From positions 1 to 40,644 of the IMG/VR virus record IMGVR_UViG_2561511241_000001: DNA of 40,644 nucleotides, one strand, 5' to 3'. Below, in pieces: positions 1 through 39,621 of this stretch (its first letter is position 1; each line of letters starts with the position of its first letter). The position numbers and the translations under genes were made by a program. The notes below the pieces were generated by a model. The model made no database searches, was not told the origin of the DNA, and was given only the letters and a program-made list of their open reading frames with translations. The stretch is from a virus. Its lineage: Duplodnaviria > Heunggongvirae > Uroviricota > Caudoviricetes.

Positions 1-1254
1 ATGCTGGAACAAATGGGCATTGCCGCGAAGCAAGCCTCGTATAAATTAGCGCAACTCTCCAGCCGCGAAAAAAATCGCGTGCTGGAAAAAATCGCCGATG
101 AACTGGAAGCACAAAGCGAAATCATCCTCAACGCTAACGCCCAGGATGTTGCTGACGCGCGAGCCAATGGCCTTAGCGAAGCGATGCTTGACCGTCTGGC
201 ACTGACGCCCGCACGGCTGAAAGGCATTGCCGACGATGTACGTCAGGTGTGCAACCTCGCCGATCCGGTGGGGCAGGTAATCGATGGCGGCGTACTGGAC
301 AGCGGCCTGCGTCTTGAGCGTCGTCGCGTACCGCTGGGGGTTATTGGCGTGATTTATGAAGCGCGCCCGAACGTGACGGTTGATGTCGCTTCGCTGTGCC
401 TGAAAACCGGTAATGCGGTGATCCTGCGCGGTGGCAAAGAAACGTGTCGCACTAACGCTGCAACGGTGGCGGTGATTCAGGACGCCCTGAAATCCTGCGG
501 CTTACCGGCGGGTGCCGTGCAGGCGATTGATAATCCTGACCGTGCGCTGGTCAGTGAAATGCTGCGTATGGATAAATACATCGACATGCTGATCCCGCGT
601 GGTGGCGCTGGTTTGCATAAACTGTGCCGCGAACAGTCGACGATCCCGGTGATCACAGGTGGTATAGGCGTATGCCATATTTATGTTGATGAAAGTGTAG
701 AGATTGCTGAAGCATTAAAAGTGATCGTCAACGCGAAAACTCAGCGTCCGAGCACATGTAATACGGTAGAAACGTTGCTGGTGAATAAAAACATCGCCGA
801 TAGCTTCCTGCCCGCATTAAGCAAACAAATGGAGGAAAGCGGCGTGGCATTACACGCAGATGCAGCTGCGCTGGCGCAGTTGCAGACAGGCCCCGCGAAG
901 GTGGTGGCTGTTAAAGCGGAAGAGTATGACGATGAGTTTCTGTCATTAGATTTGAACGTCAAAATCGTCAGTGATCTTGACGATGCCATCGCCCATATTC
1001 GTGAACACGGCACACAACACTCCGATGCGATCCTGACCCGCGATATGCGCAACGCCCAGCGTTTTGTTAACGAAGTGGATTCGTCCGCTGTTTACGTTAA
1101 CGCCTCTACGCGTTTTACCGACGGCGGCCAGTTTGGACTGGGTGCGGAAGTGGCGGTAAGCACACAAAAACTCCACGCGCGTGGCCCAATGGGGCTGGAA
1201 GCACTGACCACTTACAAGTGGATCGGCATTGGTGATTACACCATTCGTGCGTAA
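1..1254 (+). CDS. proA: gamma-glutamyl phosphate reductase (glutamate-5-semialdehyde dehydrogenase)
   Basis: Full 417 aa ORF recognised as E. coli ProA from recall ([11 protein letters not shown]...GDYTIRA); TAA stop at 1252-1254; followed by thrW as in the E. coli chromosome. Confidence 0.95.
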
Positions 1255-1368
1255 ATAAAACCGGGTGATGCAAAAGTAGCCATTTGATTCACAAGGCCAT
1301 TGACGCATCGCCCGGTTAGTTTTAACCTTGTCCACCGTGATTCACGTTCGTGAACATGTCCTTTCAGG

Positions 1369-1444
1369 GCCGATATAGCTCAGTTGGTAGAGCAGCGCAT
1401 TCGTAATGCGAAGGTCGTAGGTTCGACTCCTATTATCGGCACCA
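1369..1444 (+). tRNA. thrW: tRNA-Thr (anticodon CGU)
   Basis: 76 nt GCCGATATAGCTCAGTTGGTAGAGCAGCGCATTCGTAATGCGAAGGTCGTAGGTTCGACTCCTATTATCGGCACCA; anticodon loop TTCGTAA; T-arm GGTTCGACTCC; 3' CCA encoded. Confidence 0.9.
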
Positions 1445-1454
1445 TTTAAATCAA
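1399..1454. repeat. attL core (56 bp direct repeat, overlaps 3' end of thrW)
   Basis: ATTCGTAATGCGAAGGTCGTAGGTTCGACTCCTATTATCGGCACCATTTAAATCAA is identical to 40062-40117. Confidence 0.85.
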
Positions 1455-1458
1455 TAAG

Positions 1459-2622
1459 TTACACATCATTAGTACCTTCCTTATTTTTTGACTGGGACAA
1501 ATTTGGGACCGATGGGTTCAGGATCGAGTCTATTTGCCGTGCGTGTTCGGTAAGGTGATTAGGTGCAAGGTGAGCATATCGACGAACCATTTCGATAGAC
1601 TCCCAGCCTCCCATTTCCTGTAACACTGACAACGGGACTCCGGCTTGAACCAGCCAACTTGCCCAGGTGTGTCTCAAGTCGTGAAATCTGAAATCATCAA
1701 TACCAGCCCGTCTCAGCGCCGCTTTCCAGGCTGTGTTTGCGTCATACCGCATCTTCCTTACTGTTGGCGCTTTCGTTCCGTCTGGTTTGGTACAGCTTTC
1801 CTTGTACACAAATACCCAACGGTGATGATTCCCGATTTGTTTTTTCAATACGCGACATGCAGTATCATTCAGCGCAACGCCAATTGCGCGGTTTGATTTA
1901 CTCTCTTCCGGGTTTATCCATGCCACCCGGCGCTGCATATCTATTTGTTGCCATTCAAGGTTGATGATGTTCGAGCGTCTTAAGCCTGTTGCCAGTGCAA
2001 ATTCAACAACAGACTTTAATGGCTCCGGACATTCATCAATCAGCCTTTGTGCTTCATGGGGCTCCAGCCAGCGGATCCGTTTATTCTTTGGTTGAGGCAC
2101 TTTAATAATTGGTGCCTTATCCAGCATTTTCCATTCACGCTCTGCGGCTCTTAGTAGGGCCTTTATAAATGAAAGATGCGTAGCCTTCGTTGCAACGGAC
2201 GCTGGTTTTGGCGTGTATTCTGGAACAGGTTTCCCTTTTTTTCTGCATGCTTCTGCCCTGAGTTTCCAGTTTTCCTCATGACGCCGGTTCGTCATTTTCT
2301 GCATTGCTGAATAAATTTTTGATTCAGTAATGTCTCTTAGTTGCATTCCTGCGAAATGTTGAAGCCAGAATCCGATCCGGCTTTTGTCATCGTCCAGTGA
2401 TTTTTTATGTGCTTTCTCTTCAAGCCACCTGACACACGCTTCCTCGAACGTTATATCAGGTATTTCACCAAGTTTGCTGACCCGCCATGCTTCAGCCTTT
2501 AGCTTGTCATGGAGTTCTGTCGCCTGCCTTTTGTCCTTTGTTCCAAGAGACTGTTTAAATCTTTTACCGTTCGGCAATGTGAAACTGGCGTACCATATTT
2601 CACCTCTGCGGAAGAGTGACAT
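1459..2622 (-). CDS. int: tyrosine integrase (P22/SfV-type, thrW-specific)
   Basis: 387 aa; [34 protein letters not shown]... matches my recollection of P22 Int; C-terminal catalytic region [15 protein letters not shown]...MVRRYAHL (R-H-R-Y signature); GAGGAAA RBS; adjacent to att. Confidence 0.9.
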
Positions 2623-2849
2623 TTTCTTTCCTCTGTTATGCCATCACCCGCGCTCACCTGGACAGTATGCAGCGGAGACTGAAGAGCCGCAATGCAGGCT
2701 TGTCGTGTTGTGAGGTAAGGAGATTTATTCTTAGTGGGATCTTTGCGTGTTGCCTGAAGACGCCCTGTGCGTATCCAGTTAATGGCAGTCGGTCTGGATA
2801 TCTTGAGAAAATGACAGGCCTCATCGAGTGTGAGGCTGTATGGCTCCAT
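2499..2849 (-). CDS. xis: excisionase (Xis)
   Basis: Internal start [31 protein letters not shown] with GAGGTG RBS 5 nt upstream; 116 aa; HTH-like N-terminus; 3' end overlaps int start as in P22-like phages; ATG overlaps stop of upstream gene (TAATG). Confidence 0.7.
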
Positions 2850-3154
2850 TATTTCACCTCTTGTTGTGACATTGTTGAAAAATGGATACCAGCTCGTTGC
2901 TGCCAGACGATCCAACCGAGAGTCATATCCCATGCCATGTATTCGTTATCGCCGTTTTTTGCTCTCCGACGATCTACTAAGTCACCGAAACGCTTTTCCA
3001 TGAATAATTCATAAGCTTCGCGTTCATCTGGTTCTACTTCCAGAGATAGGAGTGCGATTTCATAAGCACGGCGCTCAATATCGTCTCGCACGTCAAGGCT
3101 GCTGATACGCTCTTTAATTTCTTTAATCAGTTCTTTGTCGGTAAAAGTGGTCAT
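2849..3154 (-). CDS. hypothetical early-left-operon protein
   Basis: 101 aa ORF, translationally coupled at both ends (TAATG overlaps with DUF551 gene and xis); acidic, helical-looking sequence. Confidence 0.5.
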   Translation of the reverse strand: MTTFTDKELIKEIKERISSLDVRDDIERRAYEIALLSLEVEPDEREAYELFMEKRFGDLVDRRRAKNGDNEYMAWDMTLGWIVWQQRAGIHFSTMSQQEVK

Positions 3155-3510
3155 TATGCTCCAGCCTCCGGTGCTTTTGGCATTACTGCCCAGTGAGTGA
3201 TATTGACGTTTTCAAGGTCCCCGACCTGAAATGTCCACTGCCATTCTCCGGTTTCTTTTTGTCCCCAGGTGTACCAGAGAGAACGCCAGCCAATTAGCCA
3301 GCCTTCTCCGTTAGCATCGAATAACAAAACACTTTCATTTGCTGGTGGCAGTTCAGTTGACACTGGTATTACTTTGTTTTCCTGTGCTGCACATTTAGCT
3401 TCAAGCGCATCGAATTTACGCACCAGGTATTCAGCATCTGTTTCATTCACTTTCAGATCTCGCGGTACACATCTCCCACGAAGAAACCCTTCCATTTCGA
3501 AAACATTCAT
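3154..3510 (-). CDS. DUF551-like phage protein
   Basis: Motif KVIPVSTELPPANESVLLFDANGEGWLIGW typical of DUF551 proteins of lambdoid prophages; start ATG overlaps stop of upstream gene (ATGA). Confidence 0.6.
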   Translation of the reverse strand: MNVFEMEGFLRGRCVPRDLKVNETDAEYLVRKFDALEAKCAAQENKVIPVSTELPPANESVLLFDANGEGWLIGWRSLWYTWGQKETGEWQWTFQVGDLENVNITHWAVMPKAPEAGA

Positions 3511-4043
3511 GCGCATTTGCGTAACTCCGATAACTCGTTAAAACGTTCCATAAACATCCCGTAGGCATGGCCCGGTGCCTGTGGAATCACTTTGAACATC
3601 TCTGTTGCCGGGATACCTTCCAGTACAGGCCAGAAAGAGCCATCATCAAGCCCGAGATCGCGGTGTTCGGTTGCCAGCATAATGAGATCGGCATATTTCA
3701 CTGGCGTGCTCATAACAGGAGGTAACCCGTATTTCTCACGGATTACGGCGTCTATTTTTTCTTCCATCCGTTTATAGTCAGGAAGAAGTCGTTTCAGTGG
3801 TGCGGGGATGTCCTGGCAATATGCTTCTGTTGCATCATACATTAAAGCTTCAAAAGCAAATTCCTGTGGCACCAGCTGGCTGCAAAGCACCGCATGTTGG
3901 GCGACACTGTAGAAGTGTGAAAGATGTCCTGCAAAGCGACAGATATTTGAAAGGGAAACCGCGATATCGTTAATAACGATGTCGTCTTTATTTATCCTGT
4001 CATAATAAAAATGCTTCCCGGAAAAAGTTTTAATAAATGACAT
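3507..4043 (-). CDS. HD-domain phosphohydrolase (YfdR-like 5'-deoxynucleotidase family)
   Basis: MSFIKTFSGKHFYYDRINKDD...HAVLCSQLVP...HDATEAYCQDIP closely resembles my recollection of CPS-53 YfdR; start chosen at the second ATG, which has a GGAG RBS 6 nt upstream. Confidence 0.7.
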   Translation of the reverse strand: MSFIKTFSGKHFYYDRINKDDIVINDIAVSLSNICRFAGHLSHFYSVAQHAVLCSQLVPQEFAFEALMYDATEAYCQDIPAPLKRLLPDYKRMEEKIDAVIREKYGLPPVMSTPVKYADLIMLATEHRDLGLDDGSFWPVLEGIPATEMFKVIPQAPGHAYGMFMERFNELSELRKCA

Positions 4044-4684
4044 TTTGTTCTCCACGTATATGCGCTGCACCGCGCTGAATTCGGGTAAAAGGAAGCCCTC
4101 ACCGTCCGGCGATTATTGAGTCAATTACATTTCCATAAATGCCCCCGTAGGGGCGGTTAGTTTCTCCACAAAACAGAGAAGAACACCTGCGGTGGCAGCC
4201 GCCCGGATGGATTGGGTTATGAGCCCGTCGTCCGGTGATGCTCTTCTCTGTTTTGTAAAAAGGACGGTACCAGCCGGAAGCAAGGGTACAAGCTGGTACC
4301 GCCAAGACTACACACAGCATAAAGTTGTGGTGCCGGGCGCCTCCCGGTGCCTGGCGAAGGTTGCACACCAGGCGGGTGGGTATCCACAGAAGGTCGACTG
4401 TCAGCCTCAACCTTTACCCGCGTGCGCTGAGCCGCATTCACCACAACGCTAAGGATTCTCTCTGGTTGAAAATACTTAGCTGTTATGTGCCTGCTTTTAG
4501 CCACATCAGGCGAGGTGGACCTAGTTATTCCCCAACAACAAGGATTTGGTTATTATGTAACCCTCCCCAACAACGATAAGGATTTATATGGAACGATGTG
4601 TAGATAAGTATGAGGAGAGGCATGTGCCGTTAAGACAAAAGCCTCCAGTTCCTCCAAAACCACCCAAGGAAAACTGAGACTAAT

Positions 4685-5179
4685 ATGACCAGAGACGATT
4701 ATAAATTTTATATTCACTACTCTTATGTATTGGAGAAGATGAATTACACGTTGTTAACTCGTATTGATAAATTAATAACGTTGATGTTAATCGTTCTCGG
4801 TTTTTCAGTTTTCGCCCCGTACAGTAATTTATTTATTTTCGGTTTGTTTGTTGCCGTACTTTCGGTTCTTCAGTTGGTCTATCAGTTCGGCCAGGAGGCT
4901 GGGATGTCTAAAGAACAAGCGAGGCATTACAAAAGACTGCTGATTGAGTCTGATACTCTTTCTGAAGATCAGTTGCAAGCTAGGTATTTAAAAATCCAAG
5001 ATACCGATAGTAATCCATGGAAATCACTTGAACGAGCGGCTTTCATTCGGGCCTGCATTTTTGCTGGTGTTCCAACTAAGTACGATCTAACAACCAAAGA
5101 AAAATTTATTGCTTGGTGTGCGGGAGATCTACCTCTAGAGAATGAACTAACGGATATTAATGATGACCAACAAGCATAA
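4685..5179 (+). CDS. two-TM membrane protein, possible superinfection-exclusion (SieB-like) moron
   Basis: 164 aa; hydrophobic segments LITLMLIVLGFSVFAPY and LFIFGLFVAVLSVLQLVY followed by a soluble charged C-terminus; AT-rich; opposite to the leftward early operon; internal in-frame ATGs at codons 19 and 34. Function is inferred from position and topology only. Confidence 0.45.
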   Translation: MTRDDYKFYIHYSYVLEKMNYTLLTRIDKLITLMLIVLGFSVFAPYSNLFIFGLFVAVLSVLQLVYQFGQEAGMSKEQARHYKRLLIESDTLSEDQLQARYLKIQDTDSNPWKSLERAAFIRACIFAGVPTKYDLTTKEKFIAWCAGDLPLENELTDINDDQQA

Positions 5180-11785: not shown

Positions 11786-12751
11786 TCAGAATCGCCCTTT
11801 TATTGCTAAATTACGATAATAAACACCTAATGCAGTAAGTCGGCATCCAGTTGAATTTATCGCAGCATAGTACATATGTTCAGTATCAACCGGCTCAACC
11901 AGTCCGTGGCGGTTACATTTTTGTAGATTTTGAAAAATTGATACATTTTCATCAATCGGTGATTCGGAAGTTGGTTCAAAGCTAGGATCTAAATGGAATA
12001 CATGTGTAGCTGTTGGGAACCATACGGGCAATTTGCGAAGAGTATCCAAAGACACTCTTGGTCCTACCTCTCTCAGAACAACAAATCGAGAAACATTTGT
12101 TTTAAAGACTGGGCGCTGATCCCACGCCCCCAATGCTTGATCCACAAAGCTATACAGACTACTTGGAGTAATATAACCTAATATATTAGCTCCTGCGCCA
12201 TACAAAGCTTCGACCATTAATGAAGTAAATACTCCACCATCATTAACTTCTTTGGCATACTCATCTCGTCTACATGCAGTAAGGATGGTAGAGCCATCTG
12301 CAAGTACAGTTTCTCCTCCTTTTAGCATTCTTTCCTGGCCAGCGGCCCCAGCCTGACAGCAGTCGAGAATAATAATTTTATTGCGTATGTTAGTTGCTTT
12401 ATTAGCCCAAACCATAACATCACTTATTCTTATGCCATTACTTGATCTTGGCGAAAAGTCATGTGGAATCAACATTCCTTCATCAATGTTATTATCAAAA
12501 TATCCATGTCCAGCAAAGTAAAATAATGCAACATCACACTCTCCAGAAAAAAGATTCTGAATTTCATATTCAAGGAAATCTTTGTTGAGGGGGGTTGCAC
12601 TACAGTGTGTAAGTGTTCTAGCCTCGAAATTAGGCCTCCCATCGGCGTGTCTAGATAATGCTTCTGCCATTTTTGCAGCATCATTTTCACATCCGCTGAG
12701 AGCATCTAATTCAGCATACTCATTGATCCCAATAAATAGTGCTTTTTTCAT
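11786..12751 (-). CDS. caspase-like cysteine protease (peptidase C14/CHAT-like) with ~100 aa C-terminal extension
   Basis: 321 aa from MKKALFIGINEY (AGGAG RBS 7 nt upstream, overlapping the TIR gene stop); caspase-fold signatures ALFIGINEYA, FYFAGHGY (His82) and IIILDCCQAG (Cys131/132); visibly AT-rich. Confidence 0.75.
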   Translation of the reverse strand: MKKALFIGINEYAELDALSGCENDAAKMAEALSRHADGRPNFEARTLTHCSATPLNKDFLEYEIQNLFSGECDVALFYFAGHGYFDNNIDEGMLIPHDFSPRSSNGIRISDVMVWANKATNIRNKIIILDCCQAGAAGQERMLKGGETVLADGSTILTACRRDEYAKEVNDGGVFTSLMVEALYGAGANILGYITPSSLYSFVDQALGAWDQRPVFKTNVSRFVVLREVGPRVSLDTLRKLPVWFPTATHVFHLDPSFEPTSESPIDENVSIFQNLQKCNRHGLVEPVDTEHMYYAAINSTGCRLTALGVYYRNLAIKGRF

Positions 12752-12761
12752 ATGGAAGCTC

Positions 12762-13163
12762 CTAAGCCAGCTCACGAATGGCAGAAACGATGCTTTCTGT
12801 ATTCCACTTGACGATTTTGTGAGCGGCTTGCTTAACTTTCATAGACGTACGCTCGGAGCCCCAAGGCTCAATGGCAATAATTGGCTTTCTATATTCTTGA
12901 GCTATTCGGATCTCTGCATCAATCCATTTGCTGTAGCTGGCATATACACCAGCCAAAATAATTACAACACTTGATGGTGCCATTTGTGATCTTATAGCAG
13001 AGTAAAGTGCAAAATCATCTTGGGCACCAATTATTGGATCAACTCTGGGTACCGAGTAGTTCTTAAAGTTGAAATACCCACGATTCTTGAGAAGAGCCAC
13101 AAGCTGTTCATAAGTGTTTGAATATTTCCAAGAGTGACTAATAAATAGATTAAAAGTTCTCAT
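12762..13163 (-). CDS. TIR-like domain protein (ThsB/DUF1863-like)
   Basis: 133 aa; N-terminal FNLFISHSWKYS (TIR-like beta-A motif), WIDAE (W80-x3-E84, candidate catalytic Glu); GGAGAG RBS; first gene of a two-gene operon with the caspase-like gene. Confidence 0.7.
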   Translation of the reverse strand: MRTFNLFISHSWKYSNTYEQLVALLKNRGYFNFKNYSVPRVDPIIGAQDDFALYSAIRSQMAPSSVVIILAGVYASYSKWIDAEIRIAQEYRKPIIAIEPWGSERTSMKVKQAAHKIVKWNTESIVSAIRELA

Positions 13164-14271: not shown

Positions 14272-14635
14272 GCTGGTTATCGCTGCATTCTTCTTTACTG
14301 TCATCGGTTCTTTCATCTGGTCTGCCAACCACTACTACAGCAAATATCAGCACGAAAAGAAACGTGCTGATGAGGCTGTACAAAATGCTGAATCTGCAAC
14401 AGCCATTACCCGTAACGTCCTGCAATCACTGCAAATCGTCAATACAGTTATAGAGGTTAACCAGCATGCAAAACAGCAGATCGCACTGGAGTCACAGAGA
14501 ACCCAGAAAGATATCAAAGTGGCTGTTGCGGATGATGGTTGTGCTGCACGCCTTGTGCCTGCTGCCGCTGCTGAGCGGTTGCGGAAGTACGCGGACAGTT
14601 TACGTGAGCACTCCGGCTACAACATTACCGACTAG
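14255..14635 (+). CDS. i-spanin (Rz-like)
   Basis: 126 aa; N-terminal TM anchor (LVIAAFFFTVIGSFIW) then coiled-coil-like periplasmic domain; overlaps endolysin stop; contains the Rz1 start in another frame. Confidence 0.7.
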   Translation: MKLSYKLVIAAFFFTVIGSFIWSANHYYSKYQHEKKRADEAVQNAESATAITRNVLQSLQIVNTVIEVNQHAKQQIALESQRTQKDIKVAVADDGCAARLVPAAAAERLRKYADSLREHSGYNITD

Positions 14636-14789
14636 TCTGACTTCTGAAACACCTGTACCGTTCATACCAAATCCTCTGACTTATGGTGCCAGCCTGGAGC
14701 TGAATGTGAGTCTGTTGTCTGCACTGGCTAACTGCAATCGGGATAAAGCTGATATTCGTAAAATAGATGCAGAGAGAACTAACCATTAA
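14532..14789 (+). CDS. o-spanin (Rz1-like lipoprotein)
   Basis: MMVVLHALCLLPLLSGCGS with lipobox LSGC, Pro/Thr-rich mature part; starts inside Rz in another frame and extends past its stop. Confidence 0.6.
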   Translation: MMVVLHALCLLPLLSGCGSTRTVYVSTPATTLPTSLTSETPVPFIPNPLTYGASLELNVSLLSALANCNRDKADIRKIDAERTNH

Positions 14790-14810
14790 GCAATAAAATT
14801 GTCAAATTAA

Positions 14811-15437
14811 TCAGTTGTCAAATGAATATACGTTAAAGGTATATGTCGACATAATTTCACCAAGTACCTCAATACATATACTTTTTTTATGAAAGATACT
14901 GGGGAAGGAACTTAGCTCTTCAAGGCATTTCACATAAGTGCTGATATCACTTGCATCACGTTCAAGGAATTTCACTTGGCCAAAAGAAGGAGTATTAATC
15001 CTAGTTCTTTGCTGGATTATATGGATAAAATGTGTAGTTGGTGAAACTATTACTCTTGAAATATCGGAAATGATGTCTTCTTGAACTTGCCGATAAAGTA
15101 AATCCTTTGGGTAATGGTGTTTGATCTCGATGGTTGCAACATTGCCATTATGTTCAGACGTTAATATCGACTGGTTATAAAGTGATATGTCAACAGCGCC
15201 GATACCGAGTTTTGGATGCTCACTTAAAGCAGTTAGTGTGCTGATTTGATTGAGAATAACAACTAACTCATCACGTATTTGAGTTTCATGTTTGCGATTG
15301 TAGAAGTAGCAATTCAGTTCATTTAACTTTTTATGCATCCTATCGTGACTAATTGCTTCGATCAGTAAATCCTGAATCATACTTTTCTCTAGGTAATCCG
15401 AACGGTTGTAAGTGACAGTATTGTGCTGGCATGTCAT
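14811..15437 (-). CDS. hypothetical protein (AT-rich cargo, second gene of two-gene module)
   Basis: 208 aa ORF, visibly AT-rich, opposite strand to flanking phage genes; no family recognised; alternative start at MIQDLL (15380). Confidence 0.5.
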   Translation of the reverse strand: MTCQHNTVTYNRSDYLEKSMIQDLLIEAISHDRMHKKLNELNCYFYNRKHETQIRDELVVILNQISTLTALSEHPKLGIGAVDISLYNQSILTSEHNGNVATIEIKHHYPKDLLYRQVQEDIISDISRVIVSPTTHFIHIIQQRTRINTPSFGQVKFLERDASDISTYVKCLEELSSFPSIFHKKSICIEVLGEIMSTYTFNVYSFDN

Positions 15438-15480
15438 TAGTATGTAAAGGTATTGTGAATGCCAGCAAGATAACGAAGTA

Positions 15481-15816
15481 TCATCGATAGAAAAACTTTA
15501 CGGCCCACTCGTAAACCGCTTTGTAAATCGGTTCATGGTAAATACTATCGATACTATTCAGATGTGCGATCATCGCCTCCACAGTTGTAGTGGTTGTTTC
15601 TAATATTTCGATTATTGCAGGGCGGTCATCATCTTCATCGAAGTATTCGAACAGCAGTACAGGTTTACCATGCCATTCAGCATCTGAGACTCTAAGGTTA
15701 CAACTACCGCTCAACTCAAAGTGAATTTTGTAATTACCTTCTACAGAATGGCCTACGGGGAAAAAGCATAGGGTGTCATCTTTGTTTAAAAGCCATTCCC
15801 ATTCATAACTATTCAT
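15481..15816 (-). CDS. hypothetical protein (AT-rich cargo, first gene of two-gene module)
   Basis: 111 aa from MNSYEWEWL (AGGAG RBS 7 nt upstream); acidic patch FEYFDEDDDRP; no family recognised. Confidence 0.5.
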   Translation of the reverse strand: MNSYEWEWLLNKDDTLCFFPVGHSVEGNYKIHFELSGSCNLRVSDAEWHGKPVLLFEYFDEDDDRPAIIEILETTTTTVEAMIAHLNSIDSIYHEPIYKAVYEWAVKFFYR

Positions 15817-15966
15817 TTGTGAACTCCTGTTCATTGAGTTTCAACAACTATCAACTACATCCAGCGAAGCATAAAAGATCGTTTATGGCAAAACCGGAGT
15901 GGAGTGCGATTCGATTCTGAGAAGGATGCCACGTATCGCACGCGAACCATCCAAGAGGATTATGCA

Positions 15967-16317
15967 ATGCCACCACGAACCCCAAAAGCCTGCCGCGTTC
16001 GCGGCTGCCCCCATACCACCACTGACTCGTCAGGCTATTGCGAAAGCCACAAAAGCGAAGGCTGGAAGCAATACAAGCCAGGCCAGTCCCGTCATCAGCG
16101 CGGCTACGGTTCGAAGTGGGACTGTATCCGCGCGCGTGTCCTGAAGCGTGACAAAGGCCTGTGTCAGTTATGTCTGCGTGCTGGTGTGGTGCGTGAGGCG
16201 AAAACCGTTGACCACATCATCTCTAAAGCGCGTGGCGGCACTGATGCCGACAGTAATCTACAGAGCCTGTGTTGGCCGTGTCATAAGGCGAAGACGGCCC
16301 GTGAATGGCTGAAGTAA
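15967..16317 (+). CDS. HNH endonuclease (terminase-associated)
   Basis: CRVRGCPH...C...H and CQLCLRAG...VDHIISKARGG...NLQSLCWPCH (HNH motif); directly upstream of the terminase small subunit. Confidence 0.8.
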   Translation: MPPRTPKACRVRGCPHTTTDSSGYCESHKSEGWKQYKPGQSRHQRGYGSKWDCIRARVLKRDKGLCQLCLRAGVVREAKTVDHIISKARGGTDADSNLQSLCWPCHKAKTAREWLK

Positions 16318-36810: not shown

Positions 36811-39621
36811 TTATTTTTTTAGAGATTGCATTCGTTCATTGAATATGTCCAATGTGTCTTGAAATTCAACAAAGCCTCTATCCTTTATAAGGCTTTTAAT
36901 TAAGTTAGGAAAATCACTTTCTACACCAGCTGTAATGAAATCTAACTCGCCTAATTTATTCGGGATGTTTTCAGAAACAAATTTGTTAATAACCTCAAGA
37001 AATTGATCAGGCATGGCACATCCGCTTGCGACTAAATGCAAACATTCCATAATATCGCTTACTGTTGCCAGTGGTAGGTTTAAAATATTACTGTTAATAA
37101 ACTTGTCTATAATGTCAACGACCTCAGGAGAGCCAATCCTTTTGATGTTCAATAATAAACTCTTAGTGATGGATCTTTTCCACTTATCATCAAATAATTG
37201 TATTTTTGTTAACGCTAATGTTAATAGTTCAGTGTTTTTGTATTCGTAATTATGATTCTCTGATAATATGTAAATGTTTCGTAAGATATTGGAGTTAATT
37301 ACATGCTGGTCATAACCATTTAACTCTCCTGTATTGATTTTTATAAGTATTACATCCAGGATTTTTAACATATCATCATGGGATTTTTGATACAAAAACT
37401 CATTCACAGCTAGAAGATTATGTATGTTTTCATAAATATTTATGTTATTAGTTCTGCCTTCTAACAAAGGAAGCAAACCATTTATTATTTTCTTTAACTG
37501 GTTTGAACTCCACGGAACACATCCTAATATAATCAATAAATTATTGGTCCATCGATCTATTGAAGTGGTATGAATAAAATTTTTATTTTTCAACCTAATC
37601 AGGTTGCATATGTTTTCGAGAGAGTTGAGTAAATATTTCTTAATATGGTGAACTTCTCTTTTGTCAAGTTTGCTGGTGCTGATTATTATTTTGTCTTTTA
37701 TTACCTTACTTAAAAATTTTTTGAGTTTTTCTGTCTCGCAGTATTTTATTAACATAAATAGATCGATTCTATTAACATAGAATATCTCTTCGCATAGATA
37801 GTGTTCGAGGCTACTAAGAATATTAAATTCGAAAAATTGTTTAACCTCTTTATATTCTTCAATTAAAATTTCGTTGCCTAAAATGAAATACACATAAGGG
37901 TACAGTTTCGCTCTTGTTTTAAATTCATCATTGGAAAATGCTATTCCACCACTCTTTCTTATTTGTGAGTACCCTAAATTCTTCTTCGATTCAACGTCAA
38001 ATCGATAGTAAGCTTTGTATATTTCATTAAATTCAAGCATCTTTACTAATTCTTGTAGCTCACTTTGCACCCCCCGTGGAAAATCAATTATTTTACTTTT
38101 AAACTCAAATGGAGTATGGCTTTCCATTATTGATTTACAATCTTCATCAATGTCCTTACCGTTACAGTGTAAATCCGACTTCAACATCCTGTAAGCATAA
38201 TCAAAATTAGACATGTGAATGGTGGCGAGAATATAGTTTCTCTCATTAAGATGAAGCTTTACTTTCGAAATAAGAATATCGAGAAGTTTGCCATATTCCT
38301 TGTTAATAAGAAGTATTTCAGCATTATCCTTTGAATAAGCGAAAGAAATCTTATTGTATAGCTCAGACTCTAATTCTGAAGAACTAATCACCTCATACAG
38401 TTTCGAGTCATAACTAACTGTATTTATAAATGCCTTTTCCAAAATAGATGAGAATGTCTTTTTTAAGTGAGTATTTTTACTCAAAATGTCATTAAGGTAT
38501 ATGCTATTTATTTTCCTGCTATACTCGTCATAATCAGTCGTCAAAATATTATTGTGGGAGGTTAGTTTAACCCCAGACTTATCATAATCAATGGTACTAT
38601 TAGTTAATTTTTTACTGATCTGCTCAGGGAGCAATACTTTGTATTGTGTTAATGCTTTTAGTTTGCTATCAACATATTTATTTATTTTTTTTGTTACAAT
38701 ACATTGAATATCATTCTTCAATTTATTTTTATCAAAATCAGACATTCTCAGGTCATCTTCTATTTTTTTTACCTTTGACTCAGTATAGATCAGGGTCCTC
38801 TTTATAAACTCATCTTGGTTTTTAACAAGCTTGAAATCACTGAAAAATTTTGAATAAAGATCATGATAGCTAATGTCAGTATTCATCGGTGTCAACAAGG
38901 ATATCCCATGATTTCTTAAGTAAAGAGCCTGGGCTGCATCATGATTTTTCTGGAGCAAATATTTTCTTGGTGTTGCTTTTGATATAGTTGTAACCCATGA
39001 AACAATCTGTTTTAAATCATAATCACTATAAGAGTATCCTAAAAACACAACAGTGTTTGTTGAGAATATTCCTTTTATAAAATTTTCGATAAGTGGAAAA
39101 TTTTGGCTGTACTGTAAGTAATCATCCTCTTTAAAAACAAAATTATTCTGTCGAAAATCCCCATGCATCTTTATAATTTTCTTGTCCAAATGACTTTGTG
39201 CCAGGTCCACGTCAGAACTAACTAAATCATAAGCCAATCCTATGTCTTGTGCAGTTTTTTCAAGCAAACTATCCCAGTTGGTTGTAATTATATAGTGGGG
39301 GTTTAATTCAAATAGCATCTTATGAAAAAGACTTGGTTTCAAATCTCTAATTATTGATTTGACTTTTTTAACATAAGAGTTTTGTCCGTATTGAAGAAAG
39401 TAAAGTTGGGCTATTTTTAAATAATCATTTTCTTCAGACAATCCTAAGTCGTCTTTTAGCTCATTTATTAACTCCCTCCAGGTTGGTATTTTTATTAATT
39501 CCGTTTCGCTGAATTTAGAAAAACCAGCACCAATAAAAAGAACTAACTTATTATCTTGACTGGCATTCAATATTTCGTTCAAGTCATATTCAGAAAAAGA
39601 AAGTGGATTTAAATTTATCAT
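36811..39621 (-). CDS. large SIR2-domain protein (DSR-like candidate antiphage NADase)
   Basis: 936 aa; N-terminal SIR2 signatures LVLFIGAGFS (GAGxS), ITTNWD (TTN-aromatic-D) and KMHGDF (catalytic His); ~700 aa C-terminal region of unknown fold; very AT-rich; opposite strand, between pin and attR. Confidence 0.75.
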   Translation of the reverse strand: MINLNPLSFSEYDLNEILNASQDNKLVLFIGAGFSKFSETELIKIPTWRELINELKDDLGLSEENDYLKIAQLYFLQYGQNSYVKKVKSIIRDLKPSLFHKMLFELNPHYIITTNWDSLLEKTAQDIGLAYDLVSSDVDLAQSHLDKKIIKMHGDFRQNNFVFKEDDYLQYSQNFPLIENFIKGIFSTNTVVFLGYSYSDYDLKQIVSWVTTISKATPRKYLLQKNHDAAQALYLRNHGISLLTPMNTDISYHDLYSKFFSDFKLVKNQDEFIKRTLIYTESKVKKIEDDLRMSDFDKNKLKNDIQCIVTKKINKYVDSKLKALTQYKVLLPEQISKKLTNSTIDYDKSGVKLTSHNNILTTDYDEYSRKINSIYLNDILSKNTHLKKTFSSILEKAFINTVSYDSKLYEVISSSELESELYNKISFAYSKDNAEILLINKEYGKLLDILISKVKLHLNERNYILATIHMSNFDYAYRMLKSDLHCNGKDIDEDCKSIMESHTPFEFKSKIIDFPRGVQSELQELVKMLEFNEIYKAYYRFDVESKKNLGYSQIRKSGGIAFSNDEFKTRAKLYPYVYFILGNEILIEEYKEVKQFFEFNILSSLEHYLCEEIFYVNRIDLFMLIKYCETEKLKKFLSKVIKDKIIISTSKLDKREVHHIKKYLLNSLENICNLIRLKNKNFIHTTSIDRWTNNLLIILGCVPWSSNQLKKIINGLLPLLEGRTNNINIYENIHNLLAVNEFLYQKSHDDMLKILDVILIKINTGELNGYDQHVINSNILRNIYILSENHNYEYKNTELLTLALTKIQLFDDKWKRSITKSLLLNIKRIGSPEVVDIIDKFINSNILNLPLATVSDIMECLHLVASGCAMPDQFLEVINKFVSENIPNKLGELDFITAGVESDFPNLIKSLIKDRGFVEFQDTLDIFNERMQSLKK

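Follow-up and report, generated by a model that had tools for sequence, protein, structure and literature searches.

Between the lysis genes and the HNH endonuclease and terminase genes of the viral record IMGVR_UViG_2561511241_000001 (IMG/VR; Caudoviricetes), a stretch of 40,644 nucleotides (nt) that comprises its positions 1 to 40,644 and is called the window in the following, lie two adjacent AT-rich genes on the minus strand. An initial annotation, made from the sequence alone, had proposed them as a candidate toxin-immunity or defence/anti-defence pair. Our comparison of related loci points to two independent single-gene cassettes, the larger of which is predicted to encode a small restriction-endonuclease-like protein. 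About 1.4 kb around the two genes is 100 % identical to the chromosome of E. coli ETEC1749, in whose record the region belongs to an SfI/e14-like myovirus prophage with an integration site adjoining the tRNA-Thr gene downstream of proA. The prophage genes run from the integrase over immunity and replication genes, RusA, Q, holin, lysozyme and Rz to Rz1 (LysC), followed by the two opposite-strand genes annotated as hypothetical proteins, the HNH endonuclease, a P27-type small terminase and the large terminase, downstream of which head genes and contractile-tail genes are encoded. The genes and open reading frames (ORFs) in question are located as follows, with protein lengths given in amino acids (aa).

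14811 to 15380, minus strand: large gene, encoding a 189-aa protein with a predicted PD-(D/E)xK (EcoRV/SwaI-like) nuclease fold, WP_000613840.1, phrog_12494

15481 to 15816, minus strand: small gene, encoding a strongly acidic 111-aa protein, WP_001089762.1, phrog_14397; ORF with a start supported by a Shine-Dalgarno sequence

15437 to 14811, minus strand: maximal ORF of the large gene, 208 aa

15834 to 15481, minus strand: maximal ORF of the small gene, 117 aa

14755 to 15966, no strand assigned: whole variable cargo region, delimited by homology breaks versus E. coli prophages with other or no cargo

Both minus-strand ORFs were found where the initial annotation had placed them, and the smaller one most likely encodes the stated 111 aa, its ATG at 15816 lying 7 nt past an AGGAG Shine-Dalgarno sequence (15828–15824). 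The 208 aa originally given for the second ORF describe its maximal extent but not the likely protein: M20 (ATG 15380, MIQ...) is the start in all homologues, in the PGAP annotation and in the PHROG model, which yields 189 aa. The true starts of both ORFs are probably internal to the maximal ORFs. The AT-richness and the opposite orientation noted earlier are borne out as well, with guanine plus cytosine (GC) contents of 0.354 and 0.402 for the 111-aa and 189-aa genes compared to 0.50–0.58 in the flanks on both sides, and with immediate flanks that are all encoded on the plus strand (holin, lysozyme, Rz and Rz1 on one side, HNH, terS and terL on the other). Homologues of both proteins with 36–76 % identity occur in several genera of Enterobacterales, and the ratio of nonsynonymous to synonymous substitutions (dN/dS) is about 0.10–0.12 where dS is measurable, while elsewhere dS is saturated with dN values of 0.18–0.41. 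Because of this spread over several genera and a dN/dS of about 0.1, both ORFs are to be regarded as genuine genes under purifying selection and not as chance ORFs. Every public copy of both proteins is nonetheless named ‘hypothetical protein’; neither matches Pfam or NCBIfam, and their PHROG matches lead to function-unknown families only. The literature on prophage hotspots does not mention the two genes, and an Rfam scan of 14500–16200 detected no RNA family.

The region that harbours the two genes was compared with E. coli prophages sharing the lysis and HNH/terminase flanks. Homology of the window to prophages with other cargo ends at 14727–14760, within the 3′ end of LysC, and resumes exactly at the ATG of the HNH gene at 15967. 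Some of these prophages have an empty slot, with LysC and HNH 27 nt apart or with a gap of about 420 nt in which no gene is annotated. The alternative cargo of others encodes a trypsin-like peptidase, DUF6979 together with KilA-N, or a hypothetical protein of 184 aa. Rha- or GrlR-family genes are furthermore listed among the annotated features under two partial matches (H39 and H42). The two-gene cargo itself is rare and present in about 74 of 5,426 complete E. coli genomes. Judged by these comparisons, the slot is a true variable cargo hotspot, and the earlier view of moron-type accessory genes in a lysis-terminase slot holds. An example of a moron in this slot is bor of phage lambda. Typical moron features found here are the presence/absence polymorphism, a GC content of 0.35–0.40 compared to at least 0.50, the opposite strand and a promoter-like element ahead of the nuclease gene; no terminator and no clear promoter of the small gene were found in the promoter scan. 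Opposite orientation, deviant GC content, presence/absence polymorphism, alternative cargo per site and defence-like genes in slot or prophage are likewise shared with prophage morons and with prophage and satellite defence hotspots (Rousset et al. 2022, PMC9122126). Unlike the defence and virulence morons described so far, neither gene matches any of them, and a defence role in the present case is putative.

To follow both genes across genomes, loci were gathered by exact-protein look-ups and pattern scans of viral, genome and metagenome collections. A total of 113 loci were searched by tblastn with both proteins and loci fetched later were read from their called genes, amounting to about 120 loci overall; the pattern scan of genome contigs for the nuclease found four species. 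Co-occurrence was limited to one near-identical E. coli lineage with at least 95 % aa identity and fixed spacing, while for diverged homologues of either gene, distributed over at least eight genera, the partner gene was always missing. The small gene is absent from all of the roughly 50 loci with a nuclease homologue of 72 % identity or less, which stem from Enterobacter hormaechei, Klebsiella electrica, Yersinia, Pectobacterium, Citrobacter, Proteus and a large number of viral contigs. Conversely, the nuclease is missing from all of the roughly 25 loci with a small-gene homologue of 72 % identity or less, whose sources are Escherichia sp., Pectobacterium, Serratia, Pantoea, Citrobacter and phages of gut metagenomes. 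No room for a partner gene is left in Klebsiella, Citrobacter and several viral contigs, where the nuclease gene and the divergent small terminase gene have their starts only 36–41 nt apart. Separation is also seen among close relatives, as two loci (L044 and L045) encode an intact, 95 %-identical nuclease next to a different, oppositely oriented gene at the position of the small gene, and three others (L075–L077) kept the small gene and lost the nuclease after codon 38. The obligate linkage of a toxin-antitoxin or toxin-immunity pair is thus not observed across lineages. Nor does the nuclease behave like a toxin in need of its partner, being intact, alone and under purifying selection, according to the genomic evidence, in L044/L045 and in six other genera. 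This distribution, as far as genomes tell, is the pattern of two independent cassettes, not of an obligate toxin-antitoxin or toxin-immunity pair.

The DNA around the two genes retains traces of how they came to lie side by side. The following elements were located in the spacer and upstream of the small gene.

15381 to 15480, minus strand: inter-gene spacer of 100 nt with a candidate promoter and an imperfect inverted repeat

15448 to 15443 (TTTACA) and 15425 to 15420 (CACAAT), minus strand: candidate sigma-70-like promoter of the nuclease gene with 17 nt between the hexamers, from the promoter scan

15419 to 15432 and 15459 to 15472: imperfect 14-nt inverted repeat (ATGCCAGCA...), bracketing the −35 and overlapping the −10 hexamer

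15817 to 15884, minus strand: upstream region of the small gene with AGGAG at 15828–15824, travelling with the small gene in unrelated prophages

15885 to 15920, plus strand: foreign small-terminase 5′-end scar of 36 nt, ATGGCAAAACCGGAGTGGAGTGCGATTCGATTCTGA = MAKPEWSAIRF*

The nuclease-only locus L044, which becomes homologous to the window roughly 125 nt ahead of the nuclease ATG, has retained both promoter hexamers. The left arm of the inverted repeat is not conserved in this variant; the repeat could serve as an operator or form an RNA hairpin. Other repeats amount to short matches that are probably due to chance. Between distantly related nuclease loci, nucleotide conservation does not extend beyond the ORF. 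The small gene, by contrast, carries about 85 nt of upstream sequence along, with nucleotide homology to independent small-gene loci beginning about 80–90 nt upstream of its ATG, although no convincing −35/−10 pair was found in this region by the promoter scan.

Elsewhere both genes are flanked by terS genes of the Terminase_2/Sf6 type, and the scar matches their ‘MAKPDW(G/E)...’ start. An upstream alignment of ten loci, the window and nine independent ones, contains a conserved CCAGTCCGGTTTTGCCAT, which is the reverse complement of the terS start ATGGCAAAACCGGACTGG. The scar differs in type from the actual packaging genes of the window, which encode the HNH nuclease and a small terminase of the P27 type. 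Other phages have one of the two genes, nuclease or small, as the first to diverge from a terS of the MAKPDW type, and the native distance from the terS start is 36–68 nt for both. Because either of them takes this first divergent place elsewhere, the two genes appear to be alternative occupants of one position that were stacked in the present prophage.

For the 189-aa protein an AlphaFold2 model based on a 17-sequence alignment reached a mean predicted local distance difference test (pLDDT) value of 83 and a predicted template modelling (pTM) score of 0.84. The protein is rare, as an exhaustive HMMER search of 1.84 billion representative proteins retrieved only 42 relatives. The model comprises a helix (31–46), strands at 50–53, 65–68 and 80–89, a second helix (97–107), a strand at 117–126 and a C-terminal beta-hairpin, which corresponds to the canonical helix-strand-strand-strand-helix-strand order of the alpha-beta-beta-beta-alpha-beta core of restriction endonucleases. 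K30, E32, D64, E85 and K87 are invariant in a 34-sequence alignment covering 19–66 % identity. In the model, E32 is placed on the helix, D64 just ahead of the second strand (65–68) and E85-I-K87 within the third strand (80–89), so that E32, D64 and E85-x-K87 make up the catalytic signature of PD-(D/E)xK enzymes. The initial annotation had recognised no motif in either protein; for the larger one this does not stand in view of its E...D...ExK arrangement (VDISLY...IEIKHHY), while its statement that this protein lacks a transmembrane segment agrees with a grand average of hydropathy of −0.18 and a globular alpha/beta model. Aligning the family profile with EcoRV by hhalign (P = 0.005; comparison sequence identical to PDB 1eo3_A) brings D64, E85 and K87 into register with the catalytic residues D74, D90 and K92, and locally the motif PDFTLY...IAIDIKTTY of EcoRV faces VDISLY...ATIEIKHHY in the 189-aa protein. 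Distant members of the family show weak matches to HSDR_N (1.4e-4), PDDEXK_9 and DpnII-MboI.

The 189-aa protein thus resembles the type II restriction endonucleases of the EcoRV branch (R.SwaI, R.BglI, R.EcoRV) in its predicted alpha/beta core, strand order and D...(D/E)xK register, and its size is compatible with a homodimeric enzyme as in that branch. It differs from the solved endonucleases in sharing only 13–14 % identity with them, a likeness to which Foldseek and sequence profiles are blind. On the strength of model and alignments we regard it with good confidence as a small EcoRV-branch PD-(D/E)xK nuclease with an intact active site, from which we infer its activity, and it is probably a Mg2+-dependent homodimer. 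No modified-base reader domain, the usual equipment of type IV (modification-dependent) enzymes, was detected in the 189 aa by profile scans or in the model. The lack of a methylase, described next, would suit a type IV enzyme. Unlike EcoRV-branch enzymes, the nuclease is not accompanied by an adjacent cognate methyltransferase in the window or in the relatives examined: neither the slot nor the parts of the matching ETEC1749 record covered by the analysis encode one, 13 inspected enterobacterial loci have none beside the nuclease, and the 121 proteins encoded in the vicinity of distant members include no recurrent methyltransferase family. By gene content, the locus is not a type II restriction-modification system, in which a methyltransferase is encoded together with the endonuclease.

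The 111-aa protein has an isoelectric point of 4.56 and a net charge of −12. The acidic patch pointed out earlier (FEYxDEDDD) is present and its DEDDD loop is conserved, with P20, G27, D45, H94 and W104 invariant in 25 sequences down to 36 % identity, and the family is confined to Enterobacterales. Its AlphaFold2 model is unreliable with a pLDDT of 53, and its profile produced only a chance-level match to CPR-C4 among PDB sequences (E = 0.17), which was dismissed. The remote-homology searches and structure predictions recommended by the initial annotation were hence productive for the nuclease with its EcoRV-like fold and motif but not for the small protein; homology to structural or lysis proteins, named there as grounds for abandoning its proposal, was found for neither gene. 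Two further relationships of the small protein were considered and rejected, as hhalign detected no similarity to the YAcAr (SLOG) protein encoded ahead of distant nuclease relatives and none to the 75-aa ORF preceding the nuclease gene of Enterobacter. In many prophages the small gene is found alone, on the opposite strand and adjoining the terminase, and going by these occurrences it is an independent single-gene moron.

Two small-gene loci deserve mention for their neighbours. In a gut-metagenome prophage (L018) an aspartyl-protease-like ORF of 154 aa at 4518–4982 (Asp_protease_2, E = 8e-6) comes after the small gene in the same orientation and replaces the nuclease. In Pantoea (L121/L122), a 46 %-identical homologue at 3501–3839 is not part of an intact lysis-terminase slot; it adjoins phage Rha/ANT genes, and a gene of the colicin/pyocin immunity family and a TolA-like fragment are found nearby.

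With regard to the biological role of the nuclease, its gene is dispensable to the phage, foreign in base composition and antisense to the late operon. With transcription from its own putative promoter, against the late operon, the protein is probably made in the lysogen, where it would most likely act as a solitary defence nuclease of the restriction type that cleaves foreign or phage DNA on entry. The DNA of the lysogen could be spared by dependence on DNA modification, by a host-wide Dam or Dcm mark, by a rare or long target site, or by activation only upon infection. As the nuclease is tolerated without a linked methyltransferase or antitoxin, the rule that distinguishes self from non-self would have to lie elsewhere. 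Solitary (orphan) restriction endonuclease genes are a recognised and poorly explained class, for which a distant methylase, methyl-directed activity or a changed function have been put forward (Ershova et al. 2012, PMC3488263). The 189-aa gene, being restriction-endonuclease-like and without a linked methyltransferase, resembles this class, and the same explanations would apply to it. Type II solitary enzymes without a candidate methylase were described to have orthologues inside complete restriction-modification systems (Ershova et al. 2012, PMC3488263), whereas no member of the 189-aa family was observed beside a methyltransferase, and unlike the catalogued solitary enzymes this one is encoded by a mobile prophage moron that is under purifying selection across genera.

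The neighbourhoods of related nucleases offer additional context. In two Proteus-type viral contigs (L067/L068, about 700–3720), the nuclease homologue lies beside a 369-aa protein with a Cap4_nuclease domain (PF14130) and a 579-aa gene without a Pfam match, which may constitute another defence system, and according to these Proteus loci the lysis-terminase slot is one that accumulates defence-like genes. Distant members with 20–40 % identity are found near WYL/WCX regulators, GmrSD_N, a type I restriction endonuclease, SspE/HEC-06-like proteins, PDDEXK_4, DUF2779 and SLOG (YAcAr) proteins. A recurrent operon on metagenome contigs (L174, L173, L140, L169, L186, L150 and L152) starts with a divergent WYL/WCX regulator followed by a 123-aa YAcAr (SLOG) protein, the PD-(D/E)xK member of about 200 aa and a protein of about 605 aa without a Pfam match, and ends with a DUF7738-DUF6892 protein of about 350 aa and a Metallophos phosphoesterase of about 232 aa. 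From its gene content, this operon looks like a candidate nucleotide-signal conflict system. In the prophage itself, a TIR-plus-caspase gene pair and a SIR2 gene in other slots, described below, were counted as defence context for the nuclease.

Taken together, we lean towards the reading that the two genes are independent single-gene morons stacked by recombination, with the nuclease as a candidate solitary defence nuclease. That defence specifically is its role appears possible, with chances that we place slightly short of even, and enzymatic activity, expression in the lysogen and sparing of self are inferred in the same manner. Of the earlier proposal of a defence candidate, the plausible part concerns one gene, the one encoding the EcoRV-like PD-(D/E)xK nuclease, and not a two-gene defence/anti-defence module, against which the distribution speaks. 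Several points weigh against our preferred reading. The hhalign probability versus EcoRV is only 7 %, the nuclease model has no significant Foldseek match in PDB or BFVD, and the sequence profile of the nuclease found no relative among PDB sequences. None of the 5,027 models of PADLOC-DB 2.0.0 matched either protein at E ≤ 1, and neither accession was found in the searchable literature or in the DefensePredictor supplements, both of which count against the nuclease as a defence gene. The defence-island context stems from relatives with 20–40 % identity, and many of these loci are near-identical, so that their counts are non-independent. How a lone EcoRV-like enzyme spares its host is a puzzle in its own right. 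Finally, the two genes are almost always found together within E. coli (74 and 78 of 5,426 genomes), and a secondary functional link may exist within this lineage.

The pairing proposed by the initial annotation would make the nuclease a toxin that is neutralised by the 111-aa protein, for example as a DNA mimic. As in barnase-barstar, colicin-immunity and other toxin-antitoxin or nuclease-inhibitor pairs, the gene of a nuclease-like protein closely follows that of a small acidic protein on the same strand, here within one AT-rich block, and the charge and conserved DEDDD loop of the small protein are reminiscent of DNA-mimic nuclease inhibitors; the Enterobacter nuclease gene, too, is preceded by a small, mildly acidic ORF of 75 aa. 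That ORF is unrelated to the small protein, however, the E. coli co-occurrence is confined to the one near-clonal lineage across all loci compared, and beside every diverged homologue of either gene the partner is missing, with lone nucleases in Klebsiella, Yersinia, Pectobacterium, Citrobacter and Proteus as well as the intact one in L044/L045, and with the small gene usually alone. Unlike such pairs, the two genes are moreover separated by a 100-nt spacer with its own promoter-like element, and profile scans detected no DNA-binding or known immunity domain in the small protein. We consider this the least probable of the readings weighed here. Alternatively, the small protein could be an anti-restriction or anti-defence DNA mimic that aids phage entry, with the nuclease as a separate defence gene and no mutual action. 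Beyond charge and acidic loop, this idea draws on the small gene always being the first gene beside the terminase/cos end, pointing away from it with a conserved upstream region. In lambda, the last-packaged end enters the cell first, and by this analogy the small gene could be among the first genes to enter. Yet orientation and low GC content would equally fit a moron expressed in the lysogen, no sequence or fold match to a known anti-restriction protein was found (the structure model being unreliable), and many carriers have a Terminase_2 small terminase. Headful packaging from a pac site generates no fixed genome end, and if those phages package in this way, the positional argument would not apply to them. 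A DNA-mimic or anti-restriction role of the small protein is a guess from charge and position, and the reading built on it is decidedly unlikely.

For the nuclease itself, a free-standing homing-type selfish endonuclease has to be weighed, which would cut a long, rare site near the terminase of phages lacking it and spread by recombinational repair, with exclusion of related phages as a by-product. Its patchy presence across many unrelated lambdoid phages, as a stand-alone cassette and recurrently 36–41 nt from a MAKPDW-type terS start, would suit such a life style, as would the conserved essential gene terS as neighbour, the conservation of the ORF alone between distant loci and the terS fragment that was co-transferred into the window with the neighbouring cassette; neither a methyltransferase nor an antitoxin would be needed. 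The sporadic, solitary and terS-adjacent pattern is also expected of any moron, though, and we regard homing as quite unlikely. The nuclease might also serve the lytic cycle of the phage in host DNA breakdown, in recombination and junction resolution or as a packaging aid, rather than acting as a defence expressed in the lysogen. Its transcription against the late operon from an own promoter-like element and its dispensability, with most prophage relatives lacking the nuclease and the slot sometimes empty, make this less likely; RusA and an HNH nuclease for packaging are already present in the prophage, and the GC content of the gene is far from that of the phage backbone. A lytic role is accordingly rated as highly unlikely. 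A bolder extension of the preferred reading would have the 189-aa protein found an undescribed type of methylase-free and antitoxin-free single-gene restriction, encoded next to the terminase of temperate phages of Enterobacterales and directed against superinfecting DNA, with self spared by a Dam or Dcm block or by specificity for modified phage DNA, and with fold relatives acting as effectors in the WYL-regulated SLOG (YAcAr)-nuclease operons. Dam is known from the carrier genera. We think this proposal unlikely to hold in full.

Further cargo was observed at other positions of the prophage. Between the Q antiterminator and the holin (window 11786–13163, minus strand), there is a second AT-rich cargo of two opposite-strand genes. 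The first of them encodes a 133-aa TIR protein (ThsB-like, PADLOC E = 2e-12) and the next a caspase-family protein of 329 aa (PADLOC ‘caspase’, E = 1.7e-19). In type IV Thoeris, TIR signalling activates a caspase-like protease (bioRxiv 10.1101/2024.10.24.620036), and the architecture of the Q-holin cargo is the same as in that system. Two E. coli relatives of the prophage contain a site-specific DNA methyltransferase in the Q-holin slot (L117 1–94 and L118 1–95); since these relatives hold a methyltransferase where the window holds the TIR and caspase genes, the Q-holin slot represents a second variable cargo position. At the tail-fibre end, beside the pinE invertase, a 936-aa SIR2-family protein (WP_000609167.1; window 36811–39621, minus strand) marks a third defence-like cargo site, its N-terminal 230 residues matching ThsA-type SIR2 models (E = 4e-29). 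A lone 134-aa ORF between the tape-measure and DNA-circularisation genes (window 28262–28666, minus strand), named ‘OB-fold protein’ by PGAP and without a PADLOC match, is possibly another moron.

The finding adds to known kinds, namely PD-(D/E)xK nucleases and prophage morons, with a nuclease that was previously unannotated. If the 189-aa protein is an active nuclease protecting the lysogen, it would add a very compact single-gene defence to the prophage repertoire, one that at present escapes annotation by Pfam, NCBIfam, PADLOC and PHROG, and it would raise the question of how an EcoRV-like enzyme spares its host without a methylase or an inhibitor. Genes that adjoin each other in a prophage hotspot, lie on one strand and are both AT-rich do not form an operon for these reasons alone, and genome scans should check co-occurrence across diverged homologues before naming a ‘pair’. 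The terminase scar, in turn, records the recombinational stacking of two cassettes that normally occupy one terminase-proximal position of different phages.

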